Both the position numbers and the translations under genes were made by a program. From Mobula hypostoma (lineage: Eukaryota), in NCBI RefSeq assembly GCF_963921235.1, contig NC_086097.1, forward strand, positions 108,378,001 to 108,442,000: DNA of 64,000 nt, written 5' to 3'. Shown piece after piece: positions 9,210-64,000 of this stretch. Every line of letters begins with the position of its first letter. Positions within the stretch are counted from its first letter, which is position 1. The notes under the pieces are model-generated. The model was not told where the DNA came from. It did no database searches and saw only the letters and a list, made by a program, of their open reading frames with translations.

Positions 9210-9380
9210 TCTGATTCTGGAAATCCAGAGTCACGCACACAAAATGCTGGTGGGTCCCAGCAGGTCAAGCAGCAGCTACTCAGACCTGATGAAGGGTTTC
9301 GACTCGAAATGTTGACTCTTTATTTCTCACCATGAATGCTGCCTGACCTGTTGTGACCCTCCAGCATTTTGTGTGTGTTA
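9210..9380. mobile_element. Penelope-like inverted pLTR pair (decayed)
   Basis: cacacaaaatgctgg...ccagcattttgtgtg arms around the decayed hammerhead core cctgatgaagggtttcgactcgaaa. Confidence 0.7.
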
Positions 9381-16785: not shown

Positions 16786-17065
16786 TAGAGGGGAAGCCTT
16801 TTAGGACCGAGATTAGGAAAAACTTCTTCACACAGAGAGTGGTGAATCTGTGGAATTCTCTGCCACAGGAAACAGTTGAGGCCAGTTCATTGGCTATATT
16901 TAAGAGGGAGTTAGATATGGCCCTTCTGGCTACGGGGGTCAGGGGGTATGGAGGGAAGACTGGGGCGGGGTTCTGAGTTGGATGATCAGCCATGATCATA
17001 ATAAATGGCGGTGCAGGCTCGAAGGGCCGAATGGCCTACTCCTGCACCTATTTTCTATGTTTCTA
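16786..17065 (+). mobile_element. Young CR1 3' end
   Basis: Encodes FRTEIRKNFFTQRVVNLWNSLP; tail tttctatgtttctatg; closely matches 46950-47230. Confidence 0.92.
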
Positions 17066-17681
17066 TGTTTCTGTGTTGGGTTCACACATCTGGTACTGTT
17101 TCTGTGCTGGGTTCTCACATCTGGTACTGTTTCTGTGCTGGGTTCTCACATCTGGTACTGTTTCTGTGTTGGGTTCCCACATCGGGTACTGTTTCTGTGT
17201 TGGGTTCCAGCATCTGGTACTGTTTCTGTGTTGGGTTCACACATCTGGTACTGTTTCTGTGCTGGGTTCTCACATCTGGTACTGTTTCTGTGTTGGGTTC
17301 CCACATCTGGTACTGTTTCTGTGCTGGGTTCTCACATCTGGTACTGTTTCTGTGTTGGGTTCACGCATCTGGTACTGTTTCTGTGTTTGGTTCCAGCATC
17401 TGGTACTGTTTCTGTGTTCGGTTCCAGCATCTGGTACTGTTTCTGTGTTGGGTTCACGCATCTGGTACTGTTTCTGTGTTGGGTTCACGCATCTGATACT
17501 GTTTCTGTGTTGGGTTCCAGCATCTGGTACTGTTTCTGTGTTTGGTTCCAGCATCTGGTACTGTTTCTGTGTTTGGTTCCAGCATCTGGTACTGTTTCTG
17601 TGTTCGGTTCCAGCATCTGGTACTGTTTCTGTGTTCGGTTCCAGCATCTGGTACTGTTTCTGTGTTGGGTTCTCACATCTG
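17066..17681. repeat. Minisatellite, 31-bp unit tgtttctgtgttgggttc(ac/tc/cc)acatctggtac, 20 copies (last partial)
   Basis: Units start at 17066, 17097 ... 17655 (exactly 19x31), with no net indel. Confidence 0.97.
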
Positions 17682-18794
17682 CAGTCTCTTACATCTTCGT
17701 GGTAGTGCTGAGTTTCTGCTACAATTGGGTGAAGTGGCTGACACACCTATGTGTATGTGTATATATTGGCTTCTGGTTAATAACCGGAATAAACCAGTAC
17801 ATTTTGGCCCAATAAGTGGCTGTTGTAATTAGCCAAAGTTTTATGGAAATAGTTTTTTAAAAAGTGTTTAAAAAAGACAAACTGCCGTTTAACTGAGTAA
17901 TATATTATGCACATAAATGAAATACAGAACAAATTAGAATGCCACCAATACTACTGTGGTTGTCTGTCATATCTGATGATGACAAGAAACCTGTGCAGGA
18001 GAGTTTTAAAGTGGAAATGTTTTAAAGTTGCTCTGGGGCAGTTCCACTCCTTTGACTTCAGATGACCAGTGAGACAAGTGGATGTCACAACAGGAGACTT
18101 CCCTGGTTGTAATGTGTGACCACAGCTGGGTTGTGCCTTGTCATGCCCTTCCCTCTCCACGAAGCGCTGCAGAGCCGCCTTCCAGGCCATTGGCTCTCAC
18201 CCGCCATGTCTGCGGGAGCTGACTTCACATGCACGGACAAGCGTATCCCTATCTCACCGGGGTATGAGACCTGCCAGCTACCTCCTGTCGAAGTGGCATA
18301 TTGTCACAAGTAAAGAAAGGGTATCCTTGCTGTTGTCTTGATTTGTTTTTGTAGCTGCCCAATTAGCCGAGTTCACTGTGTGTATATATACATTTGCACT
18401 GGATGGACTGATTTTAAATTAGTGTGAAGGAAGGTATAGTCACTGTTCAGTAGATACCATCCCTGTCACATGCTCAACTTCATTGGACTTGTGCTTCATT
18501 TTTTTGAGCGCATTAGTGGGAAAGCCTTCTCCTCTAGCCTAATATGCATTTGGGACTGGAAGGGGCTCCTTCACTATGAATCAACAGGCATCTGTTGTAA
18601 GCCACTCTACCCTGGCAGGCGAAGTTAGTTTTGAAGTATTGCTGTGACTGTGAGCAGATACGTGCATCATCTGTGCATTTATCAGGAAGGACCAAGGCAT
18701 GGGATTCAAGTGCCAGCTAGAGAGATGTCTGTCCTTGTGGTCCTGTGTTTCAGGAGTTAGTGAGAAGTGTAACTGTGTATCCTTGTGTATGTAA

Positions 18795-19540: not shown

Positions 19541-20482
19541 AAGTGCAGTGTCAGGTGTCAGAGCACTAATCTGGGCATATCTCTCGTTGGGAGTTCCCGT
19601 GACACTGCATTAGCAGCTGCAGGTGATCTCCGTGGCTGCTGCCTACCATTTGTATTTCCTGGTCATTTTGTTGGACAGTCTACAGCGGTTGGCAAAAGCC
19701 TGAGACCCCTCATTTACCAGCTAAAAACAAAACATATGGCAAACACTCAGCAGGTCAAGTGGCATCTGTGGACAGAGGAACAGGTCAAGTCTCTTTGCCA
19801 TGAACATAATCAGAGCCTTTGGAATTCTGACCATGTTCACAGTGAATGGACTTGATATGTTAGCCCGTCCACAGATGCAACTGGACCTTCGGGTGCCTCG
19901 AGATATTTCAGTATTTCTTTCAGCTTTCCAGTGTGTGCAATTTTCATCCACCCAGGCTGTTAAAATCCTTCCAGTGGAGAGCCTCTCAGTGACAGCACAC
20001 AATTCAGCAGTCGACAGTGCACATTGAAAGGTAAAGCCCTGCATCGTGAGTTGAGAGGTGGTTGATGTTGAATCAGTGATCCCACATATTAACAGATTAA
20101 GGGTAGCACTGCACCCTTTGGAGCGTAGCGTCTATCATCAAGGACCCCCGTCTTCTGAGTCGCGCTCTCTTCTTGCTGCTGCTGTCAGGAAGGAAGTGCA
20201 GGAGCCTTAAGTTAACCACCACCAGGTTCAGAAACAGTTATTGCCCTCAACCATCAGGCTCCTGAACCAGAGGGGAGATCACTTCACTCAACTTTACTCA
20301 CCTCTACACTAAACTGTGGAATGGAGGGTACTGGGAATCAGGACGGAAAGTGGAGTTGAAGTCAGTCAGCATAGTACTCACGATAAACACGAGGAATTCT
20401 GCAGATGCTGGAAATTCAAGCAACACACATCAAAGTTGCTGGTGAACGCAGCAGGCCAGGCAGCATCTCTAGGAAGAGGTAC

Positions 20483-20518
20483 AGTCGACGTTTCGGGCCG
20501 AAACCCTTCGTCAGGACT
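20483..20518 (-). ncRNA. Minimal type I hammerhead ribozyme (PLE type), intact core
   Basis: Minus strand AGTC-CTGACGA-A-GGGT(TTCG)GCCC-GAAAC-GTC-GACT. Confidence 0.85.
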
Positions 20519-20694
20519 AACTGAAGGAAGACTGAGTAAGGGATTTGAAAGTTGGAGGGGGAGGGGGAGATCCAAAATGATAGGAGAAGACAGGAGGGGG
20601 AGGGAGAGGGAGACCCCTCCTGTCTTCTCCTATTATTTTGGATCTCCCCCTCCCCCTCCCACTTCCAAATCTCTTACTAGCTCTTCCTTCAGTT

Positions 20695-20730
20695 AGTCCT
20701 GACGAAGGGTCTCGGCCCGAAACGTCGACT
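20695..20730 (+). ncRNA. Minimal type I hammerhead ribozyme (PLE type), intact core
   Basis: AGTC-CTGACGA-A-GGGT(CTCG)GCCC-GAAAC-GTC-GACT: stem I AGUC/GACU, palindromic ACGU in place of stem III, predicted cleavage after C20726. Confidence 0.85.
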
Positions 20731-21079
20731 GTACCTCTTCCTAGAGATGCTGCCTGGCCTGCTGCGTTCACCAGCAACTTTGATGTATATTACTCACGAT
20801 GTTGAATGGCAGAGCAGGCATGACACCAACATGGTCCACAGAGGGGACTGGAATGTCACCACCCATCCTGACAGCCTCCAGTGTACCTGAGCACACAGTC
20901 ATCATTCAATTTCTGGTTTAATTGTCCTTCAACCAAATACATGAATACAGCCAAATGGAACAGTGTTCCTCTGAGGCCAAGGTACAAAACACTGCACACA
21001 CAGTCACCCACAGCACATATAGTTATGATAGCAGTAAACATACAGTCACAAAAAAATTATAGCTGGAGTCCCTGAGTGT

Positions 21080-23460
21080 CATGCCTGTAGCTGGATGGCT
21101 TATGGGATATTGTCTTGGAGCCACGTTGCTGCAAGAACAAATTTCTGCTTTAAGAAGACCAGTGTTATCCCGGTACCGAAGGAAAACAGGGTAATGTGCT
21201 TTTATTGGTAGCTCTGACATCCACCATCACGAAGCTGGTCATGGCACACATTAACTCCAGCCGCCCAGACAACCTCAACCCACTGCAATTTGCCTACGGC
21301 TGACACTGGTCTATAGTAGAATCCATTTCTATGGCACTATGCTCATCTGGACAGTAAAGACACGTATGTTAGACTATTGTTTATCGACTACAGTACTGCC
21401 TTCAATACTATTAGTTCCAAGGAAACTAGTCATAAAATTCCTAGACCTGGGGGTCACTACCTCCTTTTGTAACTGGATCCTTGACTTCCTGACCAATAGA
21501 TTGCAAGCAGTAAGGATTGGCAGCAACACCTCTGCCACGATTATCCTGAACACCGGTACCCCACAAGTTAGTCCTCAGGCCCCACTTTACTCCCTGTACA
21601 CTCACAACAGTGTGGCCAGATTCTGCTTTAATTTCATCTGCAAGTTTGCAGATGACATCACAGTGGTGAGCTGTATCTCAGATAGCTATGAGTCAGAGTA
21701 CATGAAGGATACAGAGAGCTTAGTAACATTGTGTCAGGACAATGACCTTTCCCCTAATGTAAGTGAAACAAAAGAGCTGGTAAATGACGTCAGGAACAGG
21801 GGCGGTTAACATACTGGTGTTTACATCAATGGTGCTGATTGATTGAAACACAGCCAAGAAAGCTCACCAACGCCTCAACTTCTTCAGGATGCTAAAGATG
21901 TTTTGACACTCATCAATTTTTATTGATGCACCATTGAAAGCATCCTGTCTGGAAGCATTTCATGGTTTGGTATTGCAACTGCTCTGCCCAAGACAGCAAG
22001 AAACTCCTGAGAGTACCTGGAAATCAGCTACCCCTCCATTGACTCCTCTCTGCTTCTTGCTGCCTTAGTAATGCATCAAACCCAGCCTTTCTGGACACTC
22101 TTCTCCCCTCCTCCTATTGTGCAGGTACAAGAGACTAGAAGCATATTCCACCAGGCTGAAGGATAGATTCTATCATTATAAGACTATTGAATAGTTCCCT
22201 AAGATGGTAAACTGAGCCCTTGACCTCACAATCGACCTCATTATGACCTTGCACTCTATTGTCTACCAACACTGCACTTTCTCTGTAAATGAACCACTTT
22301 ATTCAGCACCCTGTTAATGCTTTACCTTCCTCTACCTCAGGCTACGTCCACACTATGCTGGATAATTTTGAAAACGAAGCTTTTTCTCTTCGTTTTGACC
22401 CTCTGTCCACACTAAAACGGCGTTTTCATCCTCTGAAAATAGAGATTTTCAGAAACGGTCTCCAGAGTGAATAAATCTGAAAACGCCTAATATCTGTTGC
22501 AGTGTGGACATGGTAAACAGAGCTTTTTAAAACCGCTGTCATGACGTGCCGCAACAGATGACGGCAGTGTGGCATTTCATTGTTTTATTATTATTACTTT
22601 ATTGTCGCCAAACAATTGATACTAGAGCGTACAATCATCACAGTGATATTTGATTCTGCGCTTCGCAGAACTTAACAATTTCAGAACAGACGGCAACAAG
22701 ACTGAAGCCAGAAGAGTTAGAAATGTACTCACCAAATACTTTGACCCATAGCTTACTGAATAAATAATTATACCCACTTTGCCCGGTTTTCTGTCCTTGC
22801 TTGGATGAAGGTAAGTACAGAAAACACCCTCCGCCACCTCCAGTTTAAATTCTATGCGGAATATTTTGGAGGACCAAGAACCAAGAACCAAGGTGGTTTA
22901 CCTATTTATGCAAGTACTTCTCTGACAATAGATGTGTAACAGCCTAATGTAACATTGTGTGGAAATACAAGATAACACTGATACAGACATATTTTATACA
23001 TTTAACAAGGTGCTTTATTAATGCAACAGAGTTAGTCAGTTTTTCAATGTTCGTCGTCAGCTGAGTCATACTGTCCGTGAACTCCCTGTCGGTTGCCTCC
23101 ATGCGCTCCAGTATTTGTTTTTTTTTAGTTTTAAGTCCTCCTGCGCGAGAGCCAAGAGCAATTCCTTGGAAGTTTTTCTACTCTGTAACTGGACAAACGC
23201 GCACCAGGTATACCATTTCCTCTTCGCTTGTTTTCTGTGTGTCCTGCGCATGCCCAGTAGGAGGAGATTCGCCCAAATATCCGTCTAATGTGGACAGAGA
23301 TATTTTGAAAATCGCTTAGTGTGGACGCCTGTCGTTTTTACTCGAAACCGGAGTTTTCAAAATTATGCAGCGTAGTGTGGACGTAGCCTCAGTGCACTGT
23401 TGTGATGATTTGTATGAAAGGTGTGCACGACAAAGCTTTGGGACAATAGTAAAACAAATT
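21080..23460 (+). mobile_element. Rex1/Babar-like LINE (RT and 3' end), interrupted by a Harbinger element at 22340-23388
   Basis: ORF 21339-21809: [16 protein letters not shown]...TGTPQ...PLYSLYT...KFADDITVV..IS...ESEY. Confidence 0.8.
22340..23388 (-). mobile_element. PIF/Harbinger non-autonomous element, TSD TCA
   Basis: TIRs ggctacgtccacacta.gctg.ataattttgaaaac; TCA at 22337-22339 and 23389-23391; internal remnant ELLLALAQEDLKLKK similar to the Harbinger Myb-protein C-terminus. Confidence 0.88.
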
Positions 23461-23581
23461 CACTGTTTTTCTTTTTGTTACCTTTTTACGTCACAGCCAG
23501 CCAGCTGATTTGGTTCGGATCCCGATCACCAACAAATACATAATCACCCTGCACTGCATATTACTAAATTTGGAGCATACA

Positions 23582-24114
23582 CTGCACTGTGCAGAAGTTT
23601 CAGGCACATAGATACAGCTAGGGCGCCTAAGACTTTTGCACAGTACTGTAGTGATTTTATGTATTGCACTGTACTACTGCCACAAAAAAAACAAATTTTA
23701 TGACATATGCGAGTGATGATGAATCTAATCCTGATATAGGTCTCTATTGTGGACTGAGAGTGGGAAGGGGCCAGGGAGAGGAGAATTATGGTTGGGAAAA
23801 GGGAAAGGAAGAAGGGAGGGAGTGGGAAGCACCAGAGAGACATTCTATAATGATCCATAAACCGATTGTTTGGAAACAGATGACCTTGCTTGGTGTTTCA
23901 GGGCTGGGTGTGCTAACCCCTGCCCCTGGATCTAGTTCACTACCACTTGTCCCACACCCCTGCTGCAGCACTTCACCCTCGCCATTCCCAACATCCTTTG
24001 CTCCCGCCAGATTTACAAACTTGTTCTCTGTTCCCAAATTGACAAATACAGTACAGTGCAAAAATCGTAGGCACCCTCGCTACACACAATGCTCACAACT
24101 TTTGCACAGTACTG
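23582..24114. mobile_element. Composite Tc1-type element: two ~67-bp mini-MITEs (23582-23648, 24049-24114) in inverted orientation around captured DNA
   Basis: Each unit has cagtactgtgcaaaag.. / ..cttttgcacagtactg ends, mostly with TA flanks; the internal asymmetric sequence (gctaggg vs ccctcgc) is inverted. Confidence 0.7.
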
Positions 24115-24889
24115 TACCTGCCACAAGATGTACTTCATTTGTGTCCATAAGACCATAAGATATAGCAGCAGAAATCAGCCATTTGGCCCATTGATTCTAT
24201 TCTGCCATTTCATCATGGCTGATCCATTTTTCCTCCACTCCAGTCTCCTGACTTCTCCCCGTATCCCTCCATGCCCCGACCAATCAAGAATCTATCGACC
24301 TCTGCCTTAAATGTACATAAAGATTTGGCCTCCACAACTGCCTTTGGCAACAAATACGACAGATTCACCACTTGCTAGCTAAAGAAATTCCACTTCTTCT
24401 CCATTCTAAAAGGATACCCCTTTATTCTGAGGCTGTGTCCTCTGGTGTTGGATCTCCCACCAAAGGAAACATCCTCTCCACAAACACTATCAAGGCCTTT
24501 TATTATTTGATAGGTTTCAATTAGGTCACCCCTCATTCTTCTGAATTCTAGTGAATACAGGCACAGAGCCATCAAACGCTCTTCAATGACAGGCCATTCA
24601 ATCCTGGAGTCATTTTCCTGAACCTCTCCAGATTCAGAATGTCCTTTCAAAGATAAGGGGCCCAAAACTACTCACAATACTCCAAGTGAGCCTCATCCGT
24701 GCTTTGTAAAGTCTCAACATTACATCCTTGTTTATTTTATTCTAGTCCACTTGAAATTAATGCTAACATCACATTTGCCTTCCTCACCACAGACTCACCC
24801 TGCAAATTAACCTTTAGCGAATCCTGCAGAAGGACTCCCATGTCCCTTTGCGCCCCAGTTTTTTTGTACTTTCTTTCCATTTTGAGAAT

Positions 24890-26563
24890 TAGAGTTACAG
24901 AATACACGTGGACTAAGATGTTAACTGTCCTGTGCTATCACCATTGGGATCATTAGTTGATCTGCCACCTGTCTTCAGGAGTTTCGGCCCGCTTATGATC
25001 AAGACTCCCTCGAGGTGGTGGGCCAGCAGTGCTAAAGCACCATCTCCCACTGGTGAGCTTAAAAAAACTTGGCATCTGCCTCTATCAGAGTTGTTGGTCG
25101 CTTCTATCCAACAGATAGTCTGCTCTTCAGGTGTCTATGCAACTGCTGAAGGGTTTGCAAAAGATGTATACACTGTCTGACTATCTGCCCCTCTGGACAT
25201 ACTTGGTCCACACCCATGCTGATCCTTTCTCTGCTGCCTCAGCTACAGCCCTGCTGGTTGACTTGATCTCTCTTCTAGTGAAGCCAAGGTCACGCAGCCA
25301 CTTCTGGAGAGTGAATGTAATAAACCCGCGGCAGCCTATTTCGAATGGATAGCATGAGACCTTCCACCCTCTGGCTCTGCACTCTGATCTTAATTCTGCA
25401 TACTTGGTTAACTTGCGCTCATTGGCTTCATTGATGTTGTCTTCCCAGGGGACTGTGAGTTCACCAATAACCACTTCTCTACTGGTGCCAGACCATACGA
25501 TTATATCTGGACGCAATGTTGTGAAAGCTATTTGCTCCGGGAAACTGCCTTTCCCGTCGAGGTCGGCCTTGACACACCAATCATTGGCTGACGAAAGTAT
25601 GCTTGATCGTGAGCCTGCGCTGTACACCCTTGTCTTGGAGCCTTCTTTCACAAATGATATACGATATTCTGTGCAGCATGGGGCATGAGATAAGTTGTGC
25701 TGCAGTACTCTCTGCTCAACCGCTTCTGTTACAACTTTGAGAACATCATTATGTCTCCAAGTGTACATGCAGCTGGAAAGATTGACTCTGCATACACTCA
25801 AGATATGTTGAAGTGTTCCCTTCTTGCCACAAGCAGCACACCTGTCTGTCTCATCTTCATACCAGGTGCTGAGGTTGGCAGGTGTTGGGAGCAGATCGTA
25901 CACTGCTCTGCATAGAAAAGAAATGCGGAGCGGTTCCATCTGCCACAGAATATTCCAAGATTGATGTCATTGTTCAACACTTTCCCACCGGGTTCAAGCC
26001 CCTTGTTTGGCCAGGCCAGCTGTTTTAGTTAACCTCTTCTCCTCTTCTACCTCTCGTATTTCTTGTGTTACAAGCTCATAGTGCTCCTTAGAAGATGACC
26101 ACCACTTGTGGGTTGTCCATCCAAGTCCCTGGCAGCCTAGCTGGATAGCCCCAACCGTCTCCTTGTGCTTCGATCTAGACTCTGCCTCATCAACTGCTAC
26201 ACGGGCTGACCACTTCCTGCCTGATCGCACATCCAGCTGGGTGTTCTTAATGACAGGGTCTTTTGAGTCTCGAAGCATCAAGAATGATCTTACCTTGGCT
26301 ACCTTGACCTCCTCAACAAGGGATTGCACTGGGATGGTAAGCTTTGTCTGGCTACTGTGGATTGCAACATTGGTGAGGCTGCTTGGTACTCCAAGCCACT
26401 TCTTCACATACTTGTTGATCTTCCATTCCATTGCCTCAACGTGGGACATTGCCACTTCATAGACAGTTAATGGCCACATTATCCGTGGCATCAGTCCATA
26501 CTGCAAGCACTACAACTTCTACTTGCCAGGCAAGCCACACTTGTCAACAGACATCAGACCTCT
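24890..26563 (-). mobile_element. 5'-truncated Hero-clade non-LTR retrotransposon (late RT/thumb, CCHC knuckle, restriction-like endonuclease, 3' UTR), 12-bp TSD
   Basis: TSD CATTTTGAGAAT at 24878-24889 and 26564-26575. One frame, broken by stops: LPGK..QYGLMPRIMWPL.VYEV, WSARVAV, YDLLPTPANL, C..C....LQHILS.C, YTWRHN.VL, RPDI..WS.....ELTVPWE......RKLTKY, EIGCRGF. Confidence 0.88.
24938..25056 (-). ncRNA. Predicted structured RNA in the Hero 3' UTR (double pseudoknot, k-turn, hammerhead-like core words)
   Basis: Five complementary helix pairs plus a hairpin, read directly from the sequence (see findings). Function unknown. Confidence 0.6.
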
Positions 26564-28724
26564 CATTTTGAGAATAGTCTACCCTTTCATTTCTTCTCCA
26601 AACTGCATGACCATACACTTCCTGACACTGTATTCCATCTGCCACTTCTTTGCCCATTCTCCTACTCTATCTAGGTCCTTCTGTAGCCTCTCTACTTCCT
26701 CAAAGCTACCTATCCCTCCACCTATCTTAGTATTATCAACAAACTTTGCAACAAAGCCATCAATTTCATCATCCAAATCATTGACATATAATGTAAAAAG
26801 AATCTGTCCCAGCACAGACCCCTGTGGAACACCACTAATCACTGGCAACCAACTGGAAAATGCTCCCTTATTCCCACTCTTTGCCTCCTGCCAGTCAGCC
26901 ACTGCTTTATTCATGCTAGATTTTTCCTGTAACATCATGGGCATGTAGTTTGCTAAGCAGCCTCAAGTGTGGCACCTTGTCAAAGGCCTTCGTAAAAATC
27001 CAAGTGCACAACCTCAACTGATTCTTTTTTGTCAGGCATTATTTTCCCATGAGGAAACCATGCTGACTACAGCCTATTTTATTGTGTGCCTCCACATCCT
27101 CAACAATCAGCTCCAACACCTTCCCAATCACTGAGGTCAGACCAACTGGCTTGTAAATTCTTTGTTTCTGCCTCTGTCCCTTCTTTAAGAGTGAAGCGAC
27201 ATTTGCAATTCTCCAGTCTTCTGGAACCATTCCAGAATCTAGTGCTTCTTGAAAGATCATTACTAATGCTTCTACAATTTCTTCAGCCACCTCATTCAGA
27301 ACTCTGAGATGTACAACATTTGGTCCGGGTGACTTATCTACCTTCAGACCTTTCAATTTTTCAAGAACCATCTCTCTAGTAATGGTAAATTCACACACTT
27401 CATGACCCCTGACACCTTAGAACTTCCACCACACTGCTAGTGTCTTCCACAGTGAAGACAGATGCAAAATATTTATTCAGTTTGTCTGCTATTTCCTTGT
27501 TCCCCATTACTACTCCAGCATCATTTTCCAGTGGCCGTTATCTGGTTTAGGTATAGCCCATCCCTTTTAACTTCCCCAGAAGAGATCCCAATAATCCATT
27601 ACTCTGCCACCTACACCAGTTCCTCAACGACGCATTCACCTGTCAAATCGTTCTATTCTTACACTCACTGGTGTGTGGCACAGGCTTTGCTGGATGACTT
27701 TGACAATAAACTTCCACAATGACAGGAATAATAGGTGCATCAGACCACCAACTCAAGTTGCCCTAAATTCATGTACAGCTTTCAGTCTTTAATTTATTGC
27801 CATACCTTTGTTGTTGTTTTCAGATATTGGAATCCCCTATCAAATGTTAATGTGATCAACCATTTCACCTTAAGACATGGGAGCAGAATTAGGCCATTCA
27901 GCCTGTCAAGTCTTCTCCCCCATTCCACTATGGCTTCCCCCTCAACCCCACTCTCCTGCCTTCTCCATTACTAGCTGTGCAAAAGACATCCTATCAACTC
28001 TGAGGGATATTAGGATGGGGTCTAAAAGCCAACCTTGCATTCCTGTAGATTAATTTTGAAGTCTTGTTTTAGACTATGAGCAGCTGTAAATACATCAGTT
28101 GAAATTATATTAGCACGGAAAGCAAGTTGTATCTAGTATAATTCTTATTATACTTTCTAAAGCAACAAGTAAAATGATGAATTGTGTGCATCATTTTGAA
28201 GAATTCACATTTCACCAACGTGATATGAAAAATGGAAATGCAGTTATTGGAAATCTGAAATATAAACAGAAAATGCGTGAGGTACTTAGCAAATCAGACT
28301 GCATATATGGAGAGAGAAACGGAGTTCATGTTACAGACAAGGGAAAGCATTGAAAGAACAAAAATGCAGGTGTATGATCACTTGAGACTTGGAGAAACCG
28401 AGTAACAGTTGGCGCTGGTGCCAGCAGAGACAAGCTGATGCTACTTGTCTGAATGAGATGCATAAAGAAGATGGTTAAACAAAGAGGTGGGTTTAAAAAA
28501 TCAGATTCAGGTTTATTATCACTGACACATCATGAAATTTGTTGTCTTGTAGCAGCAGTACAGTGCAATACATACAATTATTGTAATTTAAGATAAGAAA
28601 TATAAATGTAAATCTTTATTATAAAGTACATGAATCTTTTATGCACTGCTGCTGCAGAACAACATTCTGATTCTGAAAAGAAAAACAACACTCAGTATGA
28701 GATGCAGTACACAGGAATTATCTT

Positions 28725-29210
28725 AGGGCCCCTTATCTAAGAAAGGATGTGCTGACATTGAGAGGGATCAAATAGATTCATGAAAATGATTCCGGAATTA
28801 AAGGGCTTGTCATATGAGTGTTTAATGGCTCTGGTCCTATACTCACTGGAATTCAGAGGAATGAGGGGGGACCTCATTGAAACCTGTCGAATGTTGAAAG
28901 GCCTTGACAGAGTGGATGTAGAGAGGATATTTCCAATGGTGGGAGAGTCTAAGGCCAGAGGACACAGCCTCCAAATGGAGGGATGTAGATATGGAGGAAT
29001 TTCTTTAGCCAGAGGTGATGAATCTGTGGAATTCATTGCCACAAGTGGCTGTGGAGGCTAAGTCATTGGGTATATTTAAGGTATGAAGGGCTATGGGGAG
29101 AATGCAGGAGATTGGGGCTGAGAGGGAGAATGGATCAGCCCTGATGAAATGGTAGCGCATGCTCGATGGGCCAAATGGCTTAATTCCGCTTCCATATCTT
29201 ATGGTCTTAA
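28725..29210 (+). mobile_element. CR1 3' fragment
   Basis: ORF 28780-29061 LYSLEFRGMRGDLIET; tail cttatggtctta. Confidence 0.85.
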
Positions 29211-32189
29211 TTGCTCGAAATAAAATAGAATGCTTCAACTGGTTAGAAGGCCAGGAAGCATCTGCGGGGAGTGAAAAACTGAGTAATGTACAGCTGGATG
29301 AATTCCAGGGACTGCATTCTGCCCACATGCATTTTTTTGAGGTGCTGTTCCTTGGTCTTTGTTGGAACTGTGTAGGAGACCAAACTCTGAATGGAATGTA
29401 GGATCAAAGTCTTCGGCAGTTATAGCCAGGATCATTCTCATGGACTGACTGGTGGCGTTCTTCTGAAGATTTATTGCTTTATGCAGCACTATAGTGAGCG
29501 CTGCCACAAGAAAGCAGCATCTATCAGCAAGACCCCCCTTCCCCATCCAGGCCTTGCTCTTTTTTTTTCTGCAGCCATCAGGAAGGAGGTACGGGAGCCT
29601 TGGGTCCCACACTACCAGCTTCAGGAACAGCTGTTACCCTTCAGCCATCAGGCTCCTGAACCAGCGTGGATAACTTCATTCACTTTACCACTGAACTGAT
29701 TCCACAACCTGTGAATGCACTCACCAGGAATCTACAGCTTATGTTCTCATATTTATTTATTTATGTTTGTATTTGCAGTTTGTCTTTTTTAAATTTTATT
29801 TTTGGCTGTCTTTGTGTGTAGGTTTTCACTGATTCAATTGTATTTCATTCTCCTGTGAATGCCTGTGATTAAATTAATCTCAGGGTAGTATATGGTATAT
29901 GTACTTTGATAAATTTACTTTGAACTATTAATGATCTTTTCGGTATGCTTTTCAAAAAGTGGTTGGATCCCCAAGCTGTTTCTGAGTTACAATTTTATAG
30001 TTTGGTGAGCTAGTTAGCATGACTTACTTTCTTGTGCTACAGTTAAAGTTAATTGTCGATTATTTGCTTGTATTTCGTGGGCTTTATATCTGACTTCAGG
30101 TATCACATCCATAGTACCATTAGTTTCTTCTTTTATGGGTCTGTTATGCTGTTACCTGCCTCAGAACTCTACTATTTGGGTTTGATTAGACATGTTTGAC
30201 CAGTTTTCTGAAGCTCAAGCAGCTGATTCTGTCAATTTTATCAACTTTTTGCAAATCTACCACTGCTTCTTGAACTTATTCCCTCATCTGCCCTTTCTGG
30301 TTACCTTTCACACCCTAAAGACATGCAGGTTGTTAGGTTAATTGGCTGCATCAAATTACTGCTCATGTAGGTAGGTGGTAGAATGATGGAAAAATAGGGA
30401 ATTTGAGCTGGCATAGATTTGAAGAGCAGTCTCCTATGTTGTAAGGAAATAGGATTTTGAGTTATCCGGGCTCAGCAATTACCTCAGCTTAGGCATCCTT
30501 CTCCCTAAATCTCCAACAGCTGCCCAACAGTTCTCCAGTTCTGCTTGCTTAGTTGAACTGACAAAATGCCTGTTTCCAATACATCCATTACTCCACTGGT
30601 TTAGCCATTGTGTTTGGATCCATTTGGACTTTGTCAAGCTATATGACTCATTTGTTTTCTGGGTACATGAAAAGAACACGGGAGGAGAATGGGCCTTTCT
30701 TCATCTCTCAGCCCATTCATTCCATCTGACCATCTGTAGTTAAAATCCTTTTTTATTCTATAATCATCAGTACATTGTGGAGCAAACAGTGATCAACCTA
30801 ACTTTTGGAATTAACCACCTGATGTCACCAATCATGTCCTAATTTAAATGTTTCTCTATCCATCTCCTCTTTCCCATTTTAGCCTTTCTTGCCAGTAAAA
30901 TTGTGGCTACGCAGATCGATTAGGGTGGCTAAGAAAGCAATATGGCATGCTTGCCTTCATTAGTCAAGGCACTGAGTTCAAAATTTATGTTGTAGCTTTA
31001 TCAAACTCTAATTAGGTCACATTTGAAGTATTGCATACAGTTCTTTTCCAAGGGTGGAAGTGTCTAATACCAGATGACATTCATTTCAAGTGAAGGGATA
31101 ATTCCAAAGGAGATGTGAGGAGTAAGTTTTTTTTACATAGAGCGTTGTGGGTGCCTGGAATGCACTTACTGGGGTGGCAATAAAGGCAGAAACTTTGGGA
31201 ACTTTTGTTTAGATAGGCACATGAATGTGGGGAAAATGGAAGGGTTTAGACAGAAGTGATTAGTTAGCCAGTTGGTTATTAATTTAATTGGTTTGGCACA
31301 ACATTGTGGGCGGAAGGGTCTGTTCCTGTGCTGTACTGTTCGATGTTTATGAAATTCATTGTGTTTTCTATATTCTTCACTGCTGTTATCTGTGTTATGC
31401 TGTCAATGCTTCACTAAACTCCTTTAACAAGTTCTTTAGCTCTGTTGATAGATCTTGACCATCAGGGTAATGATGTGTGTGCCATTGTCATTACAATGGT
31501 GTTGCCAAAAATGGCAGACATTCCAGCATATCAAAAAAAATTTAGACAAGGATTTCTGAACAAGCAGTGACTAAATATTTTATTAGTTTAGGTTTTCATA
31601 AATTCTCTGTGGGAATATTCCCTTTAGTCTGCTTGCCAATATGTGTTATGACTTTGAAATGTCTGTCCTGCTTAAATCCTAACCTGCAACTTCAGTGCAG
31701 AACACTCAGTATCAAATTACAAGCAAGAAGTGTTTGGGTGGACAAAAATCATCCAAAGTGCTGTATGTAGTGGTGTGCAAACTCATTATAGACATACTGA
31801 ATTTCAGTAGTGCAAGGGTTAAGCACTGGAATGCGTCCCTCCTATTGAAAAAAAATAGCTTGCGGATGGAGAATGGATTCAAATGAATTGTGCATTGGTA
31901 ATGAAGGCAAACTCCTTCAGATGCGTAAAGCCATCTTCAGCATTGATCAAGCTCCTTGAAAGCTGATTCATAATTCATTTGTGAACAGTCTAAACTGGTC
32001 CAGTAAATTAGAGACTGGAAGAAGAAAGTGCTGTTTTATTATTATGAAATTAGAGGCATTGCTTTCGAGTGTGAGTTTTTTTAGGTAAATCAGTTTGTCC
32101 CTCAGCCAAGCTGGGTTCAAAAGCCCTGTGACTAGCCGGGGGGAACAAAAGCATGGAACTAATACGCACCTTGCCTCGCCTGTTTTCAG

Positions 32190-33449: not shown

Positions 33450-33900
33450 TTTCAGGACTGGAAAAGAAGGGGGCAGAAGCCAGAATAAGAAGGTGGGGAG
33501 GGGAAAAGCTAAGTTCTGGTAATTTCTCACCCCTCCCCCTCCTCTCTTTTTCCATTCCCCATTCTGGTTCCCCTGTCACCCCTTCTCACCTACGCACCTC
33601 CCTCTGGTGCTCCTCCTCCTCCTCCTCCTCCTCCCCTTTCTCCTATGATCCTCTGTCATCTCCTATCACTTTCCAGCTTCTTACTTCATTCCTCCAGCCT
33701 CCTCACCTGGTTTCACTTATCACCTGCCAGCTTGTCCACTTTTCCCTTCCTTCCACTCCCCACCTCCTTATTCTGGCTTCTGCCCCCTTCCTTTCTGGTC
33801 ATGAAGAAGGGTTGTGGCCTGAAATATTGATTGTTTACTTGCTTCTATAGATGGTGCCTGACTTGCTAAGTTTTTCCAGCATTTTGTGTGTGTTGCTATT
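33450..33900. mobile_element. Penelope-like pLTR with short inverted segment; (TCC)n at about 33611-33632
   Basis: gaagggggcagaagccagaataagaaggtgggg is inverted against ccccacctccttattctggcttctgcccccttc; decayed hammerhead; ccagcattttgtgtgtgttgc end. Confidence 0.75.
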
Positions 33901-45718: not shown

Positions 45719-47230
45719 AAATAGTGGATGCATTAGTGATAATTTTTCAAAACTCTTTAGATTCTGGATTAGTTCCTGAGGATTGGAGGGTGGCTAATGT
45801 AACCCCGCTTTTTAAAAAAGGACGGAGAGAGAAACCGGGGAATTATAGACCGGTTAGCCTGACATCGGTGGTGGGGAAAATGCTAGAGTCAGTTATCAAA
45901 GATGTGATAACAGCACATTTGGAAAGCGGTAAAATCATCGGACAAAGTCAGCATAGATTTGTGAAATGAAAATCATGTATGACGAATCTTAGGGAATTTT
46001 TTGAGGATGTAATTAGTAGAGTGGATAGGGGAGAACCAGTGGATGTGGTATATTTGGATTTTCAAAAGGCTTGACAAGGTCCCACACAGGAGATTAGTGT
46101 GCAAACTTAAAGCACATGGTAATGGGGGTATGGTATTGATGTGGATAGAGAATTGGTTGGCAGACAGGAAGCAAAGAGTGGGAATAAACGGGACCTTTTC
46201 AGAATGGCAGGCAGTGACTAGTGGGGTACCGCAAGGCTCAGTGCTGGGACCCCAGCTGTTTACAATGTATATTAATTACTTAGATGAGGGAATTAAATGC
46301 AGCATCTCCAAGTTTGCGGATGACACGAAGCTGGGTGGCAGTGTTAGCTGTGAGGAGGATGCTAAGAGGATGCAGGGTGACTTGGATAGGTTAGGTGAGT
46401 GGGCAAATTCATGGCAGATGCAATTTAATGTGGATAAATGTGAGGTTATCCACTTTGGTGGCAAGAGCAGGAAAATAGATTATTATCTGAATGGTGGCCG
46501 ATTAAGAAAAGGGGAGGTGCAACGAGACCTGGGTGTCATTGAAAGTGGGCATGCAGGTACAGCAGGCGGTGAAAAAGGTGAATGGTATGCTGGCATTCAT
46601 AGCAAGAGGATTCGAGTACAGGAGCAGGGAGGTTCTACTGCAGTTGTACAGGGCTTTGGTGAGACCAGACCTGGAGTATTGTGTGCAGTTTTGGTCCCCT
46701 AATCTGAGGAAACACATTCTTTCCATAGAGGGAGTACAAAGAAGGTTCACCAGATTGATTCCTGGGATGGCAGGACTTTCATATGATGAAAGACTGGATG
46801 AACTGGGCTTGTACTCGTTGAAATTTAGAAGATTGAGGGGGGATCTGATTGAAACGTATCAAATCCTAAAAGGATTGGACAGGCTAGATGCAGGAAGATT
46901 GTTCCCGATGTTGGGGAAGTCCAGAACGAGGGGTCACAGTTTGAGGATAAAAGGGAAGCTCTTTAGGACCGAGATTAGGAAAAACTTCCTCACACAGAGA
47001 GTGGTGAACCTGTGGAATTCTCTGCCACAGGAAACAGTTGAGGCCAGTTCATTGGCTATATTTAAGAGGGAGTTAGATATGGCCCTTGTGGCTGAAGGGA
47101 TCAGTGGGTATGGAGGGAAGGCTGGTACAGGGTTCTGAGTTGGATGATCAGCCATGATCATACTGAATGGTGGTGCAGGCTCGAAGGGCTGAATGGCCTA
47201 CTCCTGCACCTATTTTCTATGTTTCTATGT
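45719..47230 (+). mobile_element. Young 5'-truncated CR1 LINE (RT to 3' tail), with frameshifts
   Basis: ORFs 45703-45969, 46043-46702 (SGVPQGSVLGP, KFADDTK) and 46533-47138; tail tttctatgtttctatg. Confidence 0.95.
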
Positions 47231-47574
47231 TTTCTCAGACTGTTGTTGTGTCTTCCTTGAGGACGCAGGCCAGTGACTTTTTCAAGTTTGTAACCAAGGA
47301 CTTCTTTTCCAGTGGTACCTTTCAGGTTAGGGGTATATGCAAGTTTGGGACGTAACCACGACATGCTCTTTAGAAAAAAAAACTATGGTTCACTCATCCC
47401 ACCAAGAGGGCTGCTAAGATACCAGGCAGTTTTATATTGCCAGCAAAATTTACTTCAGGAAGACACCTTGCCTCTTGCTTTGCCTTCGAGGAAAACACAT
47501 ACCCATAGCTGCAATCCTCAGTACAGTTGCCTCAAAACCGGAAGCTGTGGTTAATACCAAGTAGAACTTTGAAA

Positions 47575-61122: not shown

Positions 61123-61402
61123 CTCAGAGACACAAGAGGTACTGCAGATGCTGGAAATCTGGAATCACACACACAATGTGTTGGAGGAGCCCAGCAGGTC
61201 AGGCAGCATCTATGGATGGAGATAAACAGGGAATGTTTCGGGCCAGGGTGTTTCATCAGGACTGGAAAGGAAGGGGGATTTCTGACTTCTTCCCCCTTCC
61301 TTTCCAGTCCTGATGAAATCTCCTGGCCCGAAGCATCGACTGTTTCTTCCCGTCCATAGATGCTGCCTGACCTGCTGGGCTCCTCCAGCACATTGTGTCT
61401 AT
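61123..61402. mobile_element. Penelope-like inverted pLTR pair with 11-bp TSD TGACCATTTAA
   Basis: TSD at 61112-61122 and 61403-61413; complementary arms about 61161-61278 and 61290-61398; decayed hammerhead cores. Confidence 0.85.
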
Positions 61403-64000
61403 TGACCATTTAATTGAGGTGTTTAAGATGACTGAAGGAATTAGTAGAAAAGAAGTAACTTTTCCTTCTGAGGGTTGGGTGGTTCTGAAGAAGTCGTTGG
61501 CTTAAATCTACAGCAGAGCTCTCCATTCTGCTGTGATGTGATGGAGTGGTTCTTCATGTAAAGGTTAATGGAAATCTTATTCTACAAAAGATAAGGTACC
61601 TGACTAGAATATTTCAGAACAAAGACTGATGCATGTTTTACAGCCAGATATATCACAGAAGCTGAGATGGAATATTAAATTTGTTTACTGGGCTTTGTTT
61701 TCAAACTAATGTGCTCAATTTACTTGCTCAAGTTCCAATCTAATGATTTCAATTAAATGTTGTGCTCTTCTCAACACTGATGATGAAACACAAATGATTC
61801 AAATTTTTGACCCTGTAATTGGGCCCTTGCAGACTTTCAGCTGCTTCTCTATTCATAGTGTTGGGATTTAAAAACCATTAATTGCACAATTGCCGTTGGT
61901 ACTGGCGAGTGTCTGTTAAGGAAGCTGTGCAGCTTGTTCATCAGCCTCTTATTATGAAGAGGCTGCAGTTCCTGTTGCGTATTTCTAAATATATTTGCCT
62001 TAGCAGCAGGAAGCTGGCAAAAAGGAAGTACAAGAGCCTTAATTTGCTATGACATGCATTCCGGAAGTCCTTCAATGACTTTGTGATTGCAGTTGCTGTC
62101 AGCGTGTGTTTTTGTTTCTAAATTATAACATAGAGAAATTGATGGTTCTTGTTAAAGGGGTAGTGACATAAAATTAAATGGAGCAAGTTGTGATGTGTTA
62201 TAAATACCTTTTGGCCACCCTTTAGATCTTATTTGTACTATAGAAATAAAAAACCTTTTAATTTTTGTGGACTAATCATCAGGCAAATGCATCTCTGGCA
62301 GAAATTCAGGAAAGGGTGTGATGTCTTGCTTTTAGGAAATAGTGTCAGTGTTCAAAGCTTAAAGTAAATTTATTATCAAAGTACGTATATGTTACTATAT
62401 ATATCCAGAGATTCATTTTCAAGGTTCAAGATTTAATGTCATTTTTAATGTCATTTTCAGTACGCAAGTGTAAAGAAATAATTGTTAGCTCCAGATCTGA
62501 TGCAGCATAAAAAAAAACACATAAGATAAAGAACACAGTAATAAAAAAACACATTAAAAAGGTGTATCCTCAAGAAGAGTTTCAATGCTCATCCACCTAA
62601 CCTGGGTGCGAGGTTGGATTGCTCAAAGCGCCAAGCCTATTTGGGGAGATCGAGAACAGCCTGGGACTGTGTGGTCTGGGTATGTCGCTGTGCCGGGTCC
62701 AGGTTCTAGACCAAGGCACTACTCAGTGCTTGGACAATTTAAAAGGCCGTCCCAGATAGATTGGAAAGCCTGTGTGTGGAAGCGCGGGTCGGGCTGACTT
62801 TGCTCGTTCTCCCGCAATGTTCATTCTTCACTGTGGTGGCTGTCATCTCTGTGAGGTTTACGGCGTTTTTGCCCACTAATATGATGAACTGAGATTGAGG
62901 CTTGGGCCTACTACACCGGCTGCTCCAGAGAGTGGATCCAAGGACTCAATCTGGTTCAGAGTGCTGCCATTTGCTCCCATTGTTGGCATGATGTGTCTTT
63001 TGCTTTTTCCTTTTTCTGCACAGTAATTATGTTCTTTCTTTTTTTTTAATTGGATATTTCAGGTTTCTTTCTTTGTGGCTACCTGTAAGCAAACAAATCT
63101 CAAGGTGTATAATTTATACATTCTTTATAATAAATGTACTTTGAGTTGATTTGATTTGATTTGAAGAAACGTCTCAGCCCAAAAGGTCGATTGTTTATTC
63201 ACATCCATAGATACTGCCTGATCTGCTGAATTCCTTCTGCATTTTGTGTGTTACATTAAAATATAAGTACATAAGATAGCTTATATACCTAGATGGTCTG
63301 GCCACAAAGTGGCGCGAGGTACACGAGTGTCTGCGTGTGAAGTGACTCTGACAGGAAATGACAAAGCAGTGTTAAAATATGATAAACTGGAAACTGTTGT
63401 TTTGCAGGCATTCACAGTGGAACAAAGGCATAGACTAGAATCAATGAAAAACTACACACAGACTGACAAACAACCAATAACCAAAAGGAGACAAACTGTG
63501 CAAATACAAAATAAACAAACAATCATAAATAAATCCATACATAAATACTACTGAGAACATGAGTTGTAGAGTCCATGAAAGTGAGGCCATAGGTTGTGGA
63601 GTCAGTTCAGAGTTGAGGTGAGTGAAGTTATCCACTCTGGTTCAGGAGCCTGATGGTTGAAGTGTAAAGAAAGGGTGTATCTTTGGGTCTCTTTTACTTC
63701 AATTGCAACGACAATTTCATGCATAACTTAGCAAAAGATTGCAGGGTACTTTGCAAGAGTATATCCAACAGAATTTGACACTATATCACATGAAAGCATC
63801 GGGGCAGGTATTTAGAATGTTGTTCGAAGCAGTAGCTTTTAAGAAGTGTCAAAGGAGAAGAGAGAGGAAATGAGGCAAATGAATTTCAGGGCAGAAATCC
63901 AGAACCTTTGCAAAGATTGCAGTGTATAGATGGAGAGTTAATTCAACATTATTAAAACGTCAAGATTTTTGTGATTTTTTGTAAAAACAGATCCAGTTTT

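Follow-up and report, generated by a model that had tools for sequence, protein, structure and literature searches.

Introduction

The closest described relatives of the RNA reported here are the natural hammerhead ribozymes with non-circularly permuted strand orders that Eckert, Friedrich, Weinberg and Weinberg (2023; PMC10085705) described from metatranscriptome contigs that also hold hairpin ribozymes. Here we analyze a putative permuted hammerhead in the 3' untranslated region (UTR) of a Hero-like long interspersed nuclear element (LINE) with a restriction-like endonuclease. The element lies on the minus strand of a 64,000-nucleotide (nt) stretch of the Mobula hypostoma genome (assembly GCF_963921235.1, contig NC_086097.1, positions 108,378,001 to 108,442,000), which is referred to below as the window and from whose first letter all positions are counted.

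Within the published set, type SGC (HRIMA-1) cleaves at its predicted site with a rate enhancement of more than 10^6 and requires all four of its helices. Its 5' part runs from stem III through the cleavage site, stem I, a 3-nt linker and stem II to GAAA and the second strand of stem III, and its 3' part continues, after 0-44 nt, with the fourth helix, stem I, CUGANGA, (U), stem II, N and again the fourth helix; the type-SGC alignment has a U between positions 9 and 10.1. In enumerating the possible permutations, the authors assumed that three hammerhead blocks are uninterruptible, and they remarked that a direct link between stem III and the helix is not obviously compatible with the crystal structure (PMC10085705).

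Two further features of known hammerheads bear on this locus. Ordinary hammerheads contain a G10.1-C11.1 pair (PMC4209133), and natural hammerheads tolerate or keep an additional nucleotide between position 9 and position 10.1 (PMC3705267, PMC4209133). In addition, the hammerhead of a Penelope-like element needed the protein of that element to cut (PMC11167929), which provides a precedent for a conserved but conditional ribozyme in the tail of a retroelement.

Results

The motif in the window copy

A first-pass annotation of the window, made from its letters alone, had proposed that the minus strand encodes a doubly pseudoknotted RNA in a Hero 3' UTR, with hammerhead core words in permuted order and a kink-turn. 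Its transcription of the 119 bases from 25056 to 24938 (minus strand, as are all coordinates of the motif) matches the sequence exactly, and on re-check every helix and word was located where it had been placed. Read from its 5' end, the RNA begins with one strand of a closing helix, P1 (25045-25056; partner 24938-24949), which forms 11 of 12 pairs in the window copy, followed by P2 (25025-25044), a hairpin in the minimum-free-energy fold that lies between P1 and stem II. The stem II strand equivalent to positions 10.1-10.5 (25020-25024; partner 24986-24990) carries at 25024 the analogue of G10.1, and it is followed by the 5' strand of a helix that we call X (25013-25018; partner 24965-24970) and by the linker N-G-A (25010-25012), which is the non-bulged strand of a kink-turn-like loop leading from X to stem III. 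The stem III strand 16.6-16.1 (25004-25009; partner 24982-24977) ends with U16.1 at 25004 and abuts H17, a C at 25003 that was assigned by its core position, with cleavage predicted between 25003 and 25002.

Beyond the predicted site, the stem I strand 1.1-1.6 (24997-25002; partner 24957-24962) is joined by a linker (24991-24996), which across the family measures 1-8 nt and is mostly A-rich, to the stem II strand 11.5-11.1 (24986-24990). The core word G12 A13 A14 (24983-24985) is followed by the stem III strand 15.1-15.6 (24977-24982), with A15.1 at 24982, and then by the bulged strand of the kink-turn-like loop (24971-24976), which consists of 3 nt, G-A and 1 nt. The chain closes with the 3' strand of X (24965-24970), the stem I strand 2.6-2.1 (24957-24962), the CUGANGA-like word C3-A9 (24950-24956) and the 3' strand of P1 (24938-24949), which begins directly after A9. 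The window copy has A at G5 (24954) and is a mutated, slightly damaged member of its family; given the change at G5, it is probably no longer active as a ribozyme. Its stability when only nested pairs are allowed is unremarkable (z = -1.61), which is expected because the RNA is pseudoknotted.

Conservation and covariation in distant Hero-like elements

Because copies inside one genome are too alike for a test of structure, we turned to distant relatives, namely 80 contigs from metagenomes whose encoded Hero-like C-termini share 32-48% identity with that of the window. A strict descriptor, which called for the site, GAA and CUGANGA strands in order and for four helices of at least 4 perfect pairs each, matched 39 of these 80 contigs, in each case 0-700 nt after the open reading frame (ORF) and on the coding strand. 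The same descriptor had no match elsewhere on the coding strand and none on the other strand of the 80 loci, and 20 shuffles of all 80 loci yielded 1 match in total. Matches were thus specific for place and strand, which indicates that the signal was not created by the selection of sequences.

We also searched the loci with a covariance model that was built from 34 sequences and contained only helices X and III as structure. This model recovered 56 of the 80 loci at E ≤ 1e-3, with a best value of 2.6e-18. Together with L079, which was found by the strict parse only, and four weak or cut matches (L037, L085, L094 and L095), the motif is present in 61 of the 80 loci, and in all of them it lies just past the ORF on the coding strand. 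Among the 19 loci that lack it, the sequence past the ORF is shorter than 150 nt in 11 and at least 190 nt long in 8; the latter, inspected by eye, are L036, L059, L081, L089, L096, L103, L105 and L110, and L036 retains the 5' half of the motif only.

Pairing is inflated in the first alignment, whose sequences were those selected by the pairing descriptor. A second set was gathered by the model; pairing and core were analyzed in 53 distinct model-aligned sequences. Standard pairs occupied 91.1% of 1162 cells compared to 60.6% in column shuffles, and none of 500 shuffles reached the observed level. The covariation score was 0.729, compared to 0.195 for shuffled columns and at most 0.173 when partners were slid by 1-3 columns, and two-sided changes were observed in 21 of 23 pairs. 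Each helix contributed to this result: compensatory changes occurred in 6 of 6 pairs of stem I (92.1% of cells paired), 4 of 5 pairs of stem II (89.6%), 5 of 6 pairs of stem III (93.3%) and 6 of 6 pairs of helix X (89.2%). Stems I and II, which were outside the structure of the search model, paired as well as the modeled X and III. The earlier proposal of a conserved fold is borne out by this covariation and by the occurrence of the motif in 61 of 80 distant loci.

The closing helix was assessed by anchoring P1 directly after A9, which gave a mean length of 8.4 base pairs (bp) compared to 4.6 bp for shuffled sequences, and P1 reached 6 bp or more in 40 of the 51 sequences. P2 corresponds in most family members to a hairpin-forming linker of 10-29 nt; in L064 and L077 the linker is a single nucleotide. 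By eye, the P2 loops of loci L040-L109 often show a self-complementary word of six letters, which is UGAUCA in approximately 20 of the 51 sequences, UGGCCA in four of them and GACGUC in two, and the P2 of the window (25025-25044) is without a self-complementary six-letter loop word. It is conceivable that two RNAs pair through their P2 loops in a kissing-loop interaction.

The kink-turn pattern of the first-pass annotation held for the window copy and for part of the family. In its strict form the pattern has GA directly 5' of stem III on one strand and stem III followed by 3 nt and GA on the other; the window copy shows it, but only 27 of the 53 distinct members do, and the others have a bulge in the 5' strand or other loops at this position. 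The joint between stem III and X always allows for some bend, and not always by a kink-turn.

The hammerhead core

In the 53 sequences, the nucleotides that form the hammerhead core were nearly invariant. C3 was found in 51 sequences, U4 in 53, G5 in 52, A6 in 52, G8 in 52 and A9 in 51, and on the other strands G12 was found in 50, A13 in 53, A14 in 53, A15.1 in 52 and U16.1 in 52. Position N7 was free (U in 30, C in 12, A in 9 and G in 2), and position 17 was C in 20, A in 19, U in 13 and G in 1, such that 52 of 53 sequences have C, A or U. The invariant and variable positions coincide with those of catalytic hammerheads. Departures from the core were seen in L053, L107 and L108, where G12 is changed to A, and in L072, L090, L097 and L101, which have other changes. 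All three G12 changes hit the G of a CpG, and the departures look like decayed single copies.

The first pair of the five-pair helix 25024-25020/24990-24986 was G-C in 43 and G-U in 5 of the 53 sequences and showed no covariation. Because this pair behaves like G10.1-C11.1 of ordinary hammerheads, we identify the helix as stem II, which corrects the earlier statement that stem II had been replaced by two helices; stem II is present, and P1 is an addition.

Strand order and topology

Across the family, the 5' part of the chain consists of the P1 5' strand, P2, a stem II strand of 5-6 nt, the X 5' strand and a short linker, frequently with GA at its end. The middle comprises a stem III strand, H17, a stem I strand, a linker, the stem II partner, GAA and the stem III partner, and the 3' part often has 3 nt and GA before the X partner, the stem I partner, CUGANGA and the P1 3' strand. 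The order in which the core words occur, site then GAAA then CUGANGA, was the same in all 40 parsed loci, which agrees with the earlier reading that it is not the circular canonical order. The spacing between helix X and stem I is 0-3 nt, and that between X and stem II is 0-2 nt in most of the parsed loci.

We considered whether a canonical stem II might form between the strand after A9 and the strand before G12, and rejected it: 45.8% of its cells were paired compared to 44.9% in shuffles, and 182 of 500 shuffles reached the observed value. A canonical three-way junction in which A9 runs into stem II is absent. Instead, the nucleotides that follow A9 form an added closing helix, P1, with the extreme 5' end of the RNA, and the chain is interrupted between A9 and G10.1. 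Through helix X, stem III is connected at its distal end to the distal ends of stems I and II, where a second junction arises. The RNA consists of three arms that join two junctions, in the manner of the Greek letter theta, and its sole opening, between A9 and G10.1, is bridged by P1, usually together with P2; at precisely this place, natural hammerheads accept or even retain an additional nucleotide (PMC3705267, PMC4209133).

The host element and its copies

The ORF pieces upstream of the motif belong to a frame-broken non-long-terminal-repeat retrotransposon. Its last piece (25181-25966, minus strand, stop at 25181-25183) translates into 261 residues that comprise a zinc knuckle and a restriction-like endonuclease; the translation shows a Cys/His knuckle and PD...E...K-like residues, and the piece has a weak match to zf-RVT. 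A reverse-transcriptase fragment of the same frame-broken element lies at 26579-26962 (minus strand; Pfam RVT_1, E = 6e-9). Among the longer proteins searched, the 25181-25966 piece has 306 relatives at E ≤ 1e-5, many of which are approximately 1000-1100 amino acids in length and contain RVT_1. These relatives come from lancelets and a sea urchin (59-63% identical) and from many teleosts and some bivalves (approximately 42-47%). This host range agrees with that of the Hero clade with respect to its lancelet, sea urchin and fish members (PMC9004415), and the domain order of that clade, a single ORF with reverse transcriptase, then zinc knuckle, then restriction-like endonuclease, is found here. 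The element thus appears Hero-like by domain layout and host range, and "Hero" is used in this text to mean Hero-like rather than a placement in a tree. The closest named relatives of this C-terminal domain from a vertebrate element are those of lancelet and sea urchin, ahead of teleosts, and such relatedness suggests either old, separately kept Hero lineages or horizontal transfer.

The genome of 3.5 Gb holds 1731 first-look candidate copies, or 1566 with a query that corresponds to the 3' product of the predicted cut. Among the 1731, 39 other scored copies are 96-97% identical to the window copy. In an alignment of 30 copies, the end of the element falls at approximately 24891, 47 nt past the motif, and has no poly(A); the tail from the motif to the end of the likeness between copies spans 24891-24937 (minus strand). 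CUGAUGA is intact in 28 of the 30 copies, which confirms the family consensus that the first-pass annotation had proposed to check, and A at G5 is confined to the window copy and L002. A perfect 12-bp P1 is present in most of the 29 other copies. The window was also compared with assembled contigs (Logan) of four sequencing runs, which cannot show RNA ends; at both changes specific to the window, G5 and the imperfect P1, these contigs side with the family majority.

Two observations on the same contigs concern variants of the tail. One contig of a divergent subfamily, seen in two runs, has changes at 24986 and 24990, which are both ends of the 3' strand of stem II, and a matching change at 25020 or 25024 is not listed; the register of stem II may shift in this subfamily. 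Contig depth also steps by approximately 15-fold near 24983. We considered this step as a fragment boundary and rejected that interpretation, because the 3' half of the Hero tail also occurs in another repeat, and the step therefore has no bearing on cleavage.

This different, abundant repeat has near its terminus a version of the Hero tail's 3' half that matches window 24891-24981 (minus strand), spanning from the second strand of stem III to near the end of the element, followed by terminal bases of its own. Its core word is altered, with A6 replaced in most copies (for example, loci L141-L160). A 27-nt word of the repeat has 731 exact matches in the genome, often as same-strand pairs approximately 4.1-4.8 kb apart (for L147 and L148, 4095 nt on one contig). 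The first member of a pair is followed by shared internal sequence, an arrangement that resembles the long terminal repeats (LTRs) of an LTR-type element.

Other features of the window and loci

Stretches resembling the D- and T-arms of tRNA occur just after the ORF in four of the metagenome loci, preceding the motif in L061 and running to the contig end in L062, L073 and L078; ARAGORN calls no tRNA in these four 3' UTRs. In the window, dispersed repeats at 9281-9379, 33796-33894, 61305-61403 and 63156-63254 (family D6, related to D2 and D5) contain CUGAUGA with GAAA a short way after it, and they look like minimal hammerheads of Penelope-like elements. At 20419-20794 lies a 181-nt inverted repeat that is 94% complementary across a 14-nt spacer and has dozens of sub-threshold matches to microRNA models; it is probably a foldback element or one resembling a miniature inverted-repeat transposable element, rather than a microRNA. 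At 16942-17799 there is a tandem array (family D1) of approximately 27 units of 31 nt, flanked by a 288-nt repeat that recurs at 46945-47232.

Discussion

We propose that the 119 bases are a mutated copy of an RNA domain common to the 3' UTRs of Hero-type restriction-like-endonuclease LINEs, and that this domain would be a non-circularly permuted, doubly pseudoknotted hammerhead ribozyme. In intact copies, the predicted cut follows H17, whose counterpart in the window copy is C25003. The products would remain joined by approximately 29 bp (P1, II, X and III), such that the cut would nick the RNA rather than separate it, and cleavage may be reversible, with resealing being plausible, or gated by the protein of the element. 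The same domain is probably the handle by which the Hero protein recognizes its RNA in target-primed reverse transcription. On balance we favor this account, in which a protein-modulated permuted hammerhead doubles as the protein's handle on the Hero 3' UTR, and we hold it with somewhat better than even confidence. Cleavage itself is favored by the catalytic pattern of conservation and, by analogy, by the proven activity of the sister topology of type SGC.

Several observations weigh against this account. The hammerhead families of Rfam include Hammerhead_1, Hammerhead_3, Hammerhead_II, HH9 and HH10, and no hammerhead model matched at E ≤ 1, either within positions 20000-32000 of the window or in the 12 intact-motif loci that were searched. 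This null result is expected because the strand order differs from that of the models, and it also means that the search for a prior Rfam entry, which the first-pass annotation had advised, returned no match at the motif. Every genomic copy carries approximately 112 nt of the element 3' of the predicted cut. When a query of 112-113 nt representing the 3' product was used, none of 29 copies started at the cut, the nearest starting 48 nt upstream, and none started there among 29 loci obtained with a longer, and hence biased, query, some of whose places overlap the other set. All copies therefore span the cut site, which indicates that the templates were intact there when they were copied. Furthermore, a CUGANGA block split from stem II is unprecedented, and a closed theta with linkers of 0-3 nt may not fit the core geometry in three dimensions. 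Finally, the Penelope-like hammerhead was dispensable for insertion in vitro, and no RNA-seq reads ended at its site (PMC11167929), so that the way in which a conserved hammerhead works at the end of a retroelement may differ from what one would guess.

Apart from these points, we observed that metagenome contig L031 ends exactly at H17 of its motif, as judged against L032-L034. One such end in 80 contigs is within chance, and we gave it no weight.

The absence of copies that start at the cut (0 of 29) would also be in keeping with a domain that serves protein recognition only, where the Hero reverse transcriptase, perhaps together with a kink-turn-binding protein, grips the 3' UTR and the core is a rigid, non-cutting junction that either descends from a ribozyme or arose by convergence. 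In every copy the motif lies in the 3' UTR, 47 nt from the element end, and the R2 protein binds structured, pseudoknotted 3' UTR RNA (PMC12222951, PMC10499050). P1, P2 and the kink-turn-like loop are additions without a known catalytic role, and the dispensability of the Penelope-like hammerhead for insertion in vitro (PMC11167929) points the same way. However, a binding scaffold would not be expected to keep 11 catalytic nucleotides in 50-53 of 53 sequences while leaving N7 free and excluding G at position 17, and the published type-SGC RNAs of the same fold cleave (PMC10085705). Binding and cleaving are, moreover, not mutually exclusive roles. We regard recognition without cleavage as unlikely, albeit an explanation that should be taken seriously.

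A ribozyme relic is a much weaker candidate. Under this explanation, an ancestor of Hero captured a permuted hammerhead that now persists by descent and maintenance of its helices and has no present role, and the core mutations in several single copies (L053, L107, L108, L072, L090, L097, L101 and the window copy) could be cited in its support. These cases look like decayed individual copies, however, three of them being changed at the G of a CpG. In addition, the core is near-invariant and the helices are compensated although the proteins have diverged to 32-48% identity, which requires continuing selection in active lineages and makes a relic very improbable. The notion that helices and words were merely picked from a GC-rich repeat without conserved structure could appeal to the insignificant nested-only stability of the window copy (z = -1.61), but it is refuted by the strict descriptor, which gave 39 matches, all where they were expected, and a single match when all loci were shuffled 20 times, by covariation far above the shuffled and slid controls, and by covariance-model matches down to E = 2.6e-18 in unrelated contigs.

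Our preferred account of a protein-modulated permuted hammerhead can be extended into a bolder proposal that we put forward tentatively, as a possibility and not as our expectation. The Hero motif would be another natural permutation of the hammerhead, in addition to the six that were considered possible, with its CUGANGA block severed from stem II and the ribozyme as a whole closed into a cage that has the shape of a theta and includes a kink-turn. It would have been kept since early animal evolution as the 3'-UTR module of an autonomous LINE clade, and it would act as a protein-gated nick-and-reseal switch that decides on the use of the template.

If intact copies do cleave, the rule of uninterruptible blocks (PMC10085705) would be too strict, and descriptor searches based on it would miss whole families. 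Permuted hammerheads would then extend beyond viroid-like RNAs and be standard in a widespread clade of animal retrotransposons, of which the present vertebrate genome holds more than 1000 copies (first-look counts of 1731 and 1566 candidates), and the gene-insertion tools now under development from restriction-like-endonuclease LINEs would gain a compact, defined 3'-UTR module with a role in template choice that is open to direct test. If intact copies do not cleave, the motif would clearly exemplify a ribozyme core that has been taken over as a scaffold for protein binding.

The first-pass annotation had suggested that the RNA might be topologically novel and knew of no description of it. 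The same cyclic order with a fourth helix was published in 2023 for RNAs that cleave (PMC10085705), so the topology as such is not new and the class of permuted hammerheads had been described. The remainder of the statement stands within the open-access literature, where we found no paper that links Hero or any restriction-like-endonuclease LINE with a hammerhead (papers available by subscription only being outside this scope), and where later papers that use the type-SGC terms include none on retrotransposons. A word search of the main text and part of the supplement of PMC10085705 revealed no eukaryotic hosts, retrotransposon hosts or kink-turns. Within this literature, the fold class is already published, and what appears to be new is the present permutation and its occurrence in the 3' UTR of a LINE.

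Among known RNAs of retroelements, the HDV-like ribozymes of R2 and other LINEs resemble the putative Hero ribozyme in being self-cleaving ribozymes within a LINE transcript, but they belong to another class, are located at the 5' end and have a clear processing role, which is release from a co-transcript (PMC3774820). The R2 3' UTR is closer in position and likely function, as it is structured and pseudoknotted, belongs to a restriction-like-endonuclease LINE and is likely the handle by which the protein holds its template; in contrast to the Hero motif, a hammerhead core is not reported for it in the portions of the papers drawn on here (PMC10499050, PMC12222951). Penelope-like elements carry minimal hammerheads (Cervera and De la Pena, 2014; PMC4209133) in which an additional nucleotide stands between position 9 and position 10.1, the point where Hero opens. 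These hammerheads differ in topology, being ordinary type I hammerheads with a tiny stem III that are thought to work as dimers, and their hosts are another class of element with a GIY-YIG endonuclease (PMC4209133, PMC11167929). With canonical hammerheads of types I, II and III, the Hero motif has in common the catalytic core, the surrounding stems, the G10.1-C11.1 pair and the variable positions N7 and H17, whereas its strand order is not a circular permutation of theirs and its A9 is not continuous with stem II.

Type SGC (PMC10085705) is the nearest counterpart. Both RNAs have the order site, GAAA, CUGANGA and the same conserved core nucleotides, both combine stems I, II and III with a helix that joins the other sides of stems I and II, both contain two core pseudoknots, and both tie stem I to stem II by a short linker (1-8 nt in the Hero motif). 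They differ in where the chain is opened. In type SGC, a stem II strand follows CUGANGA, and the chain ends at stem III and helix X; in the Hero motif, that stem II strand and an X strand stand at the 5' end instead of the 3' end, and the opening between A9 and G10.1 lies inside "block C", which is therefore interrupted. Only the Hero motif closes its opening with P1 and P2, and only there do both strands of X connect to stem III, in many cases through a kink-turn-like loop. The hosts differ as well, since type SGC was described from metatranscriptome contigs with hairpin ribozymes, whereas the Hero motif resides in the 3' UTR of an autonomous LINE.

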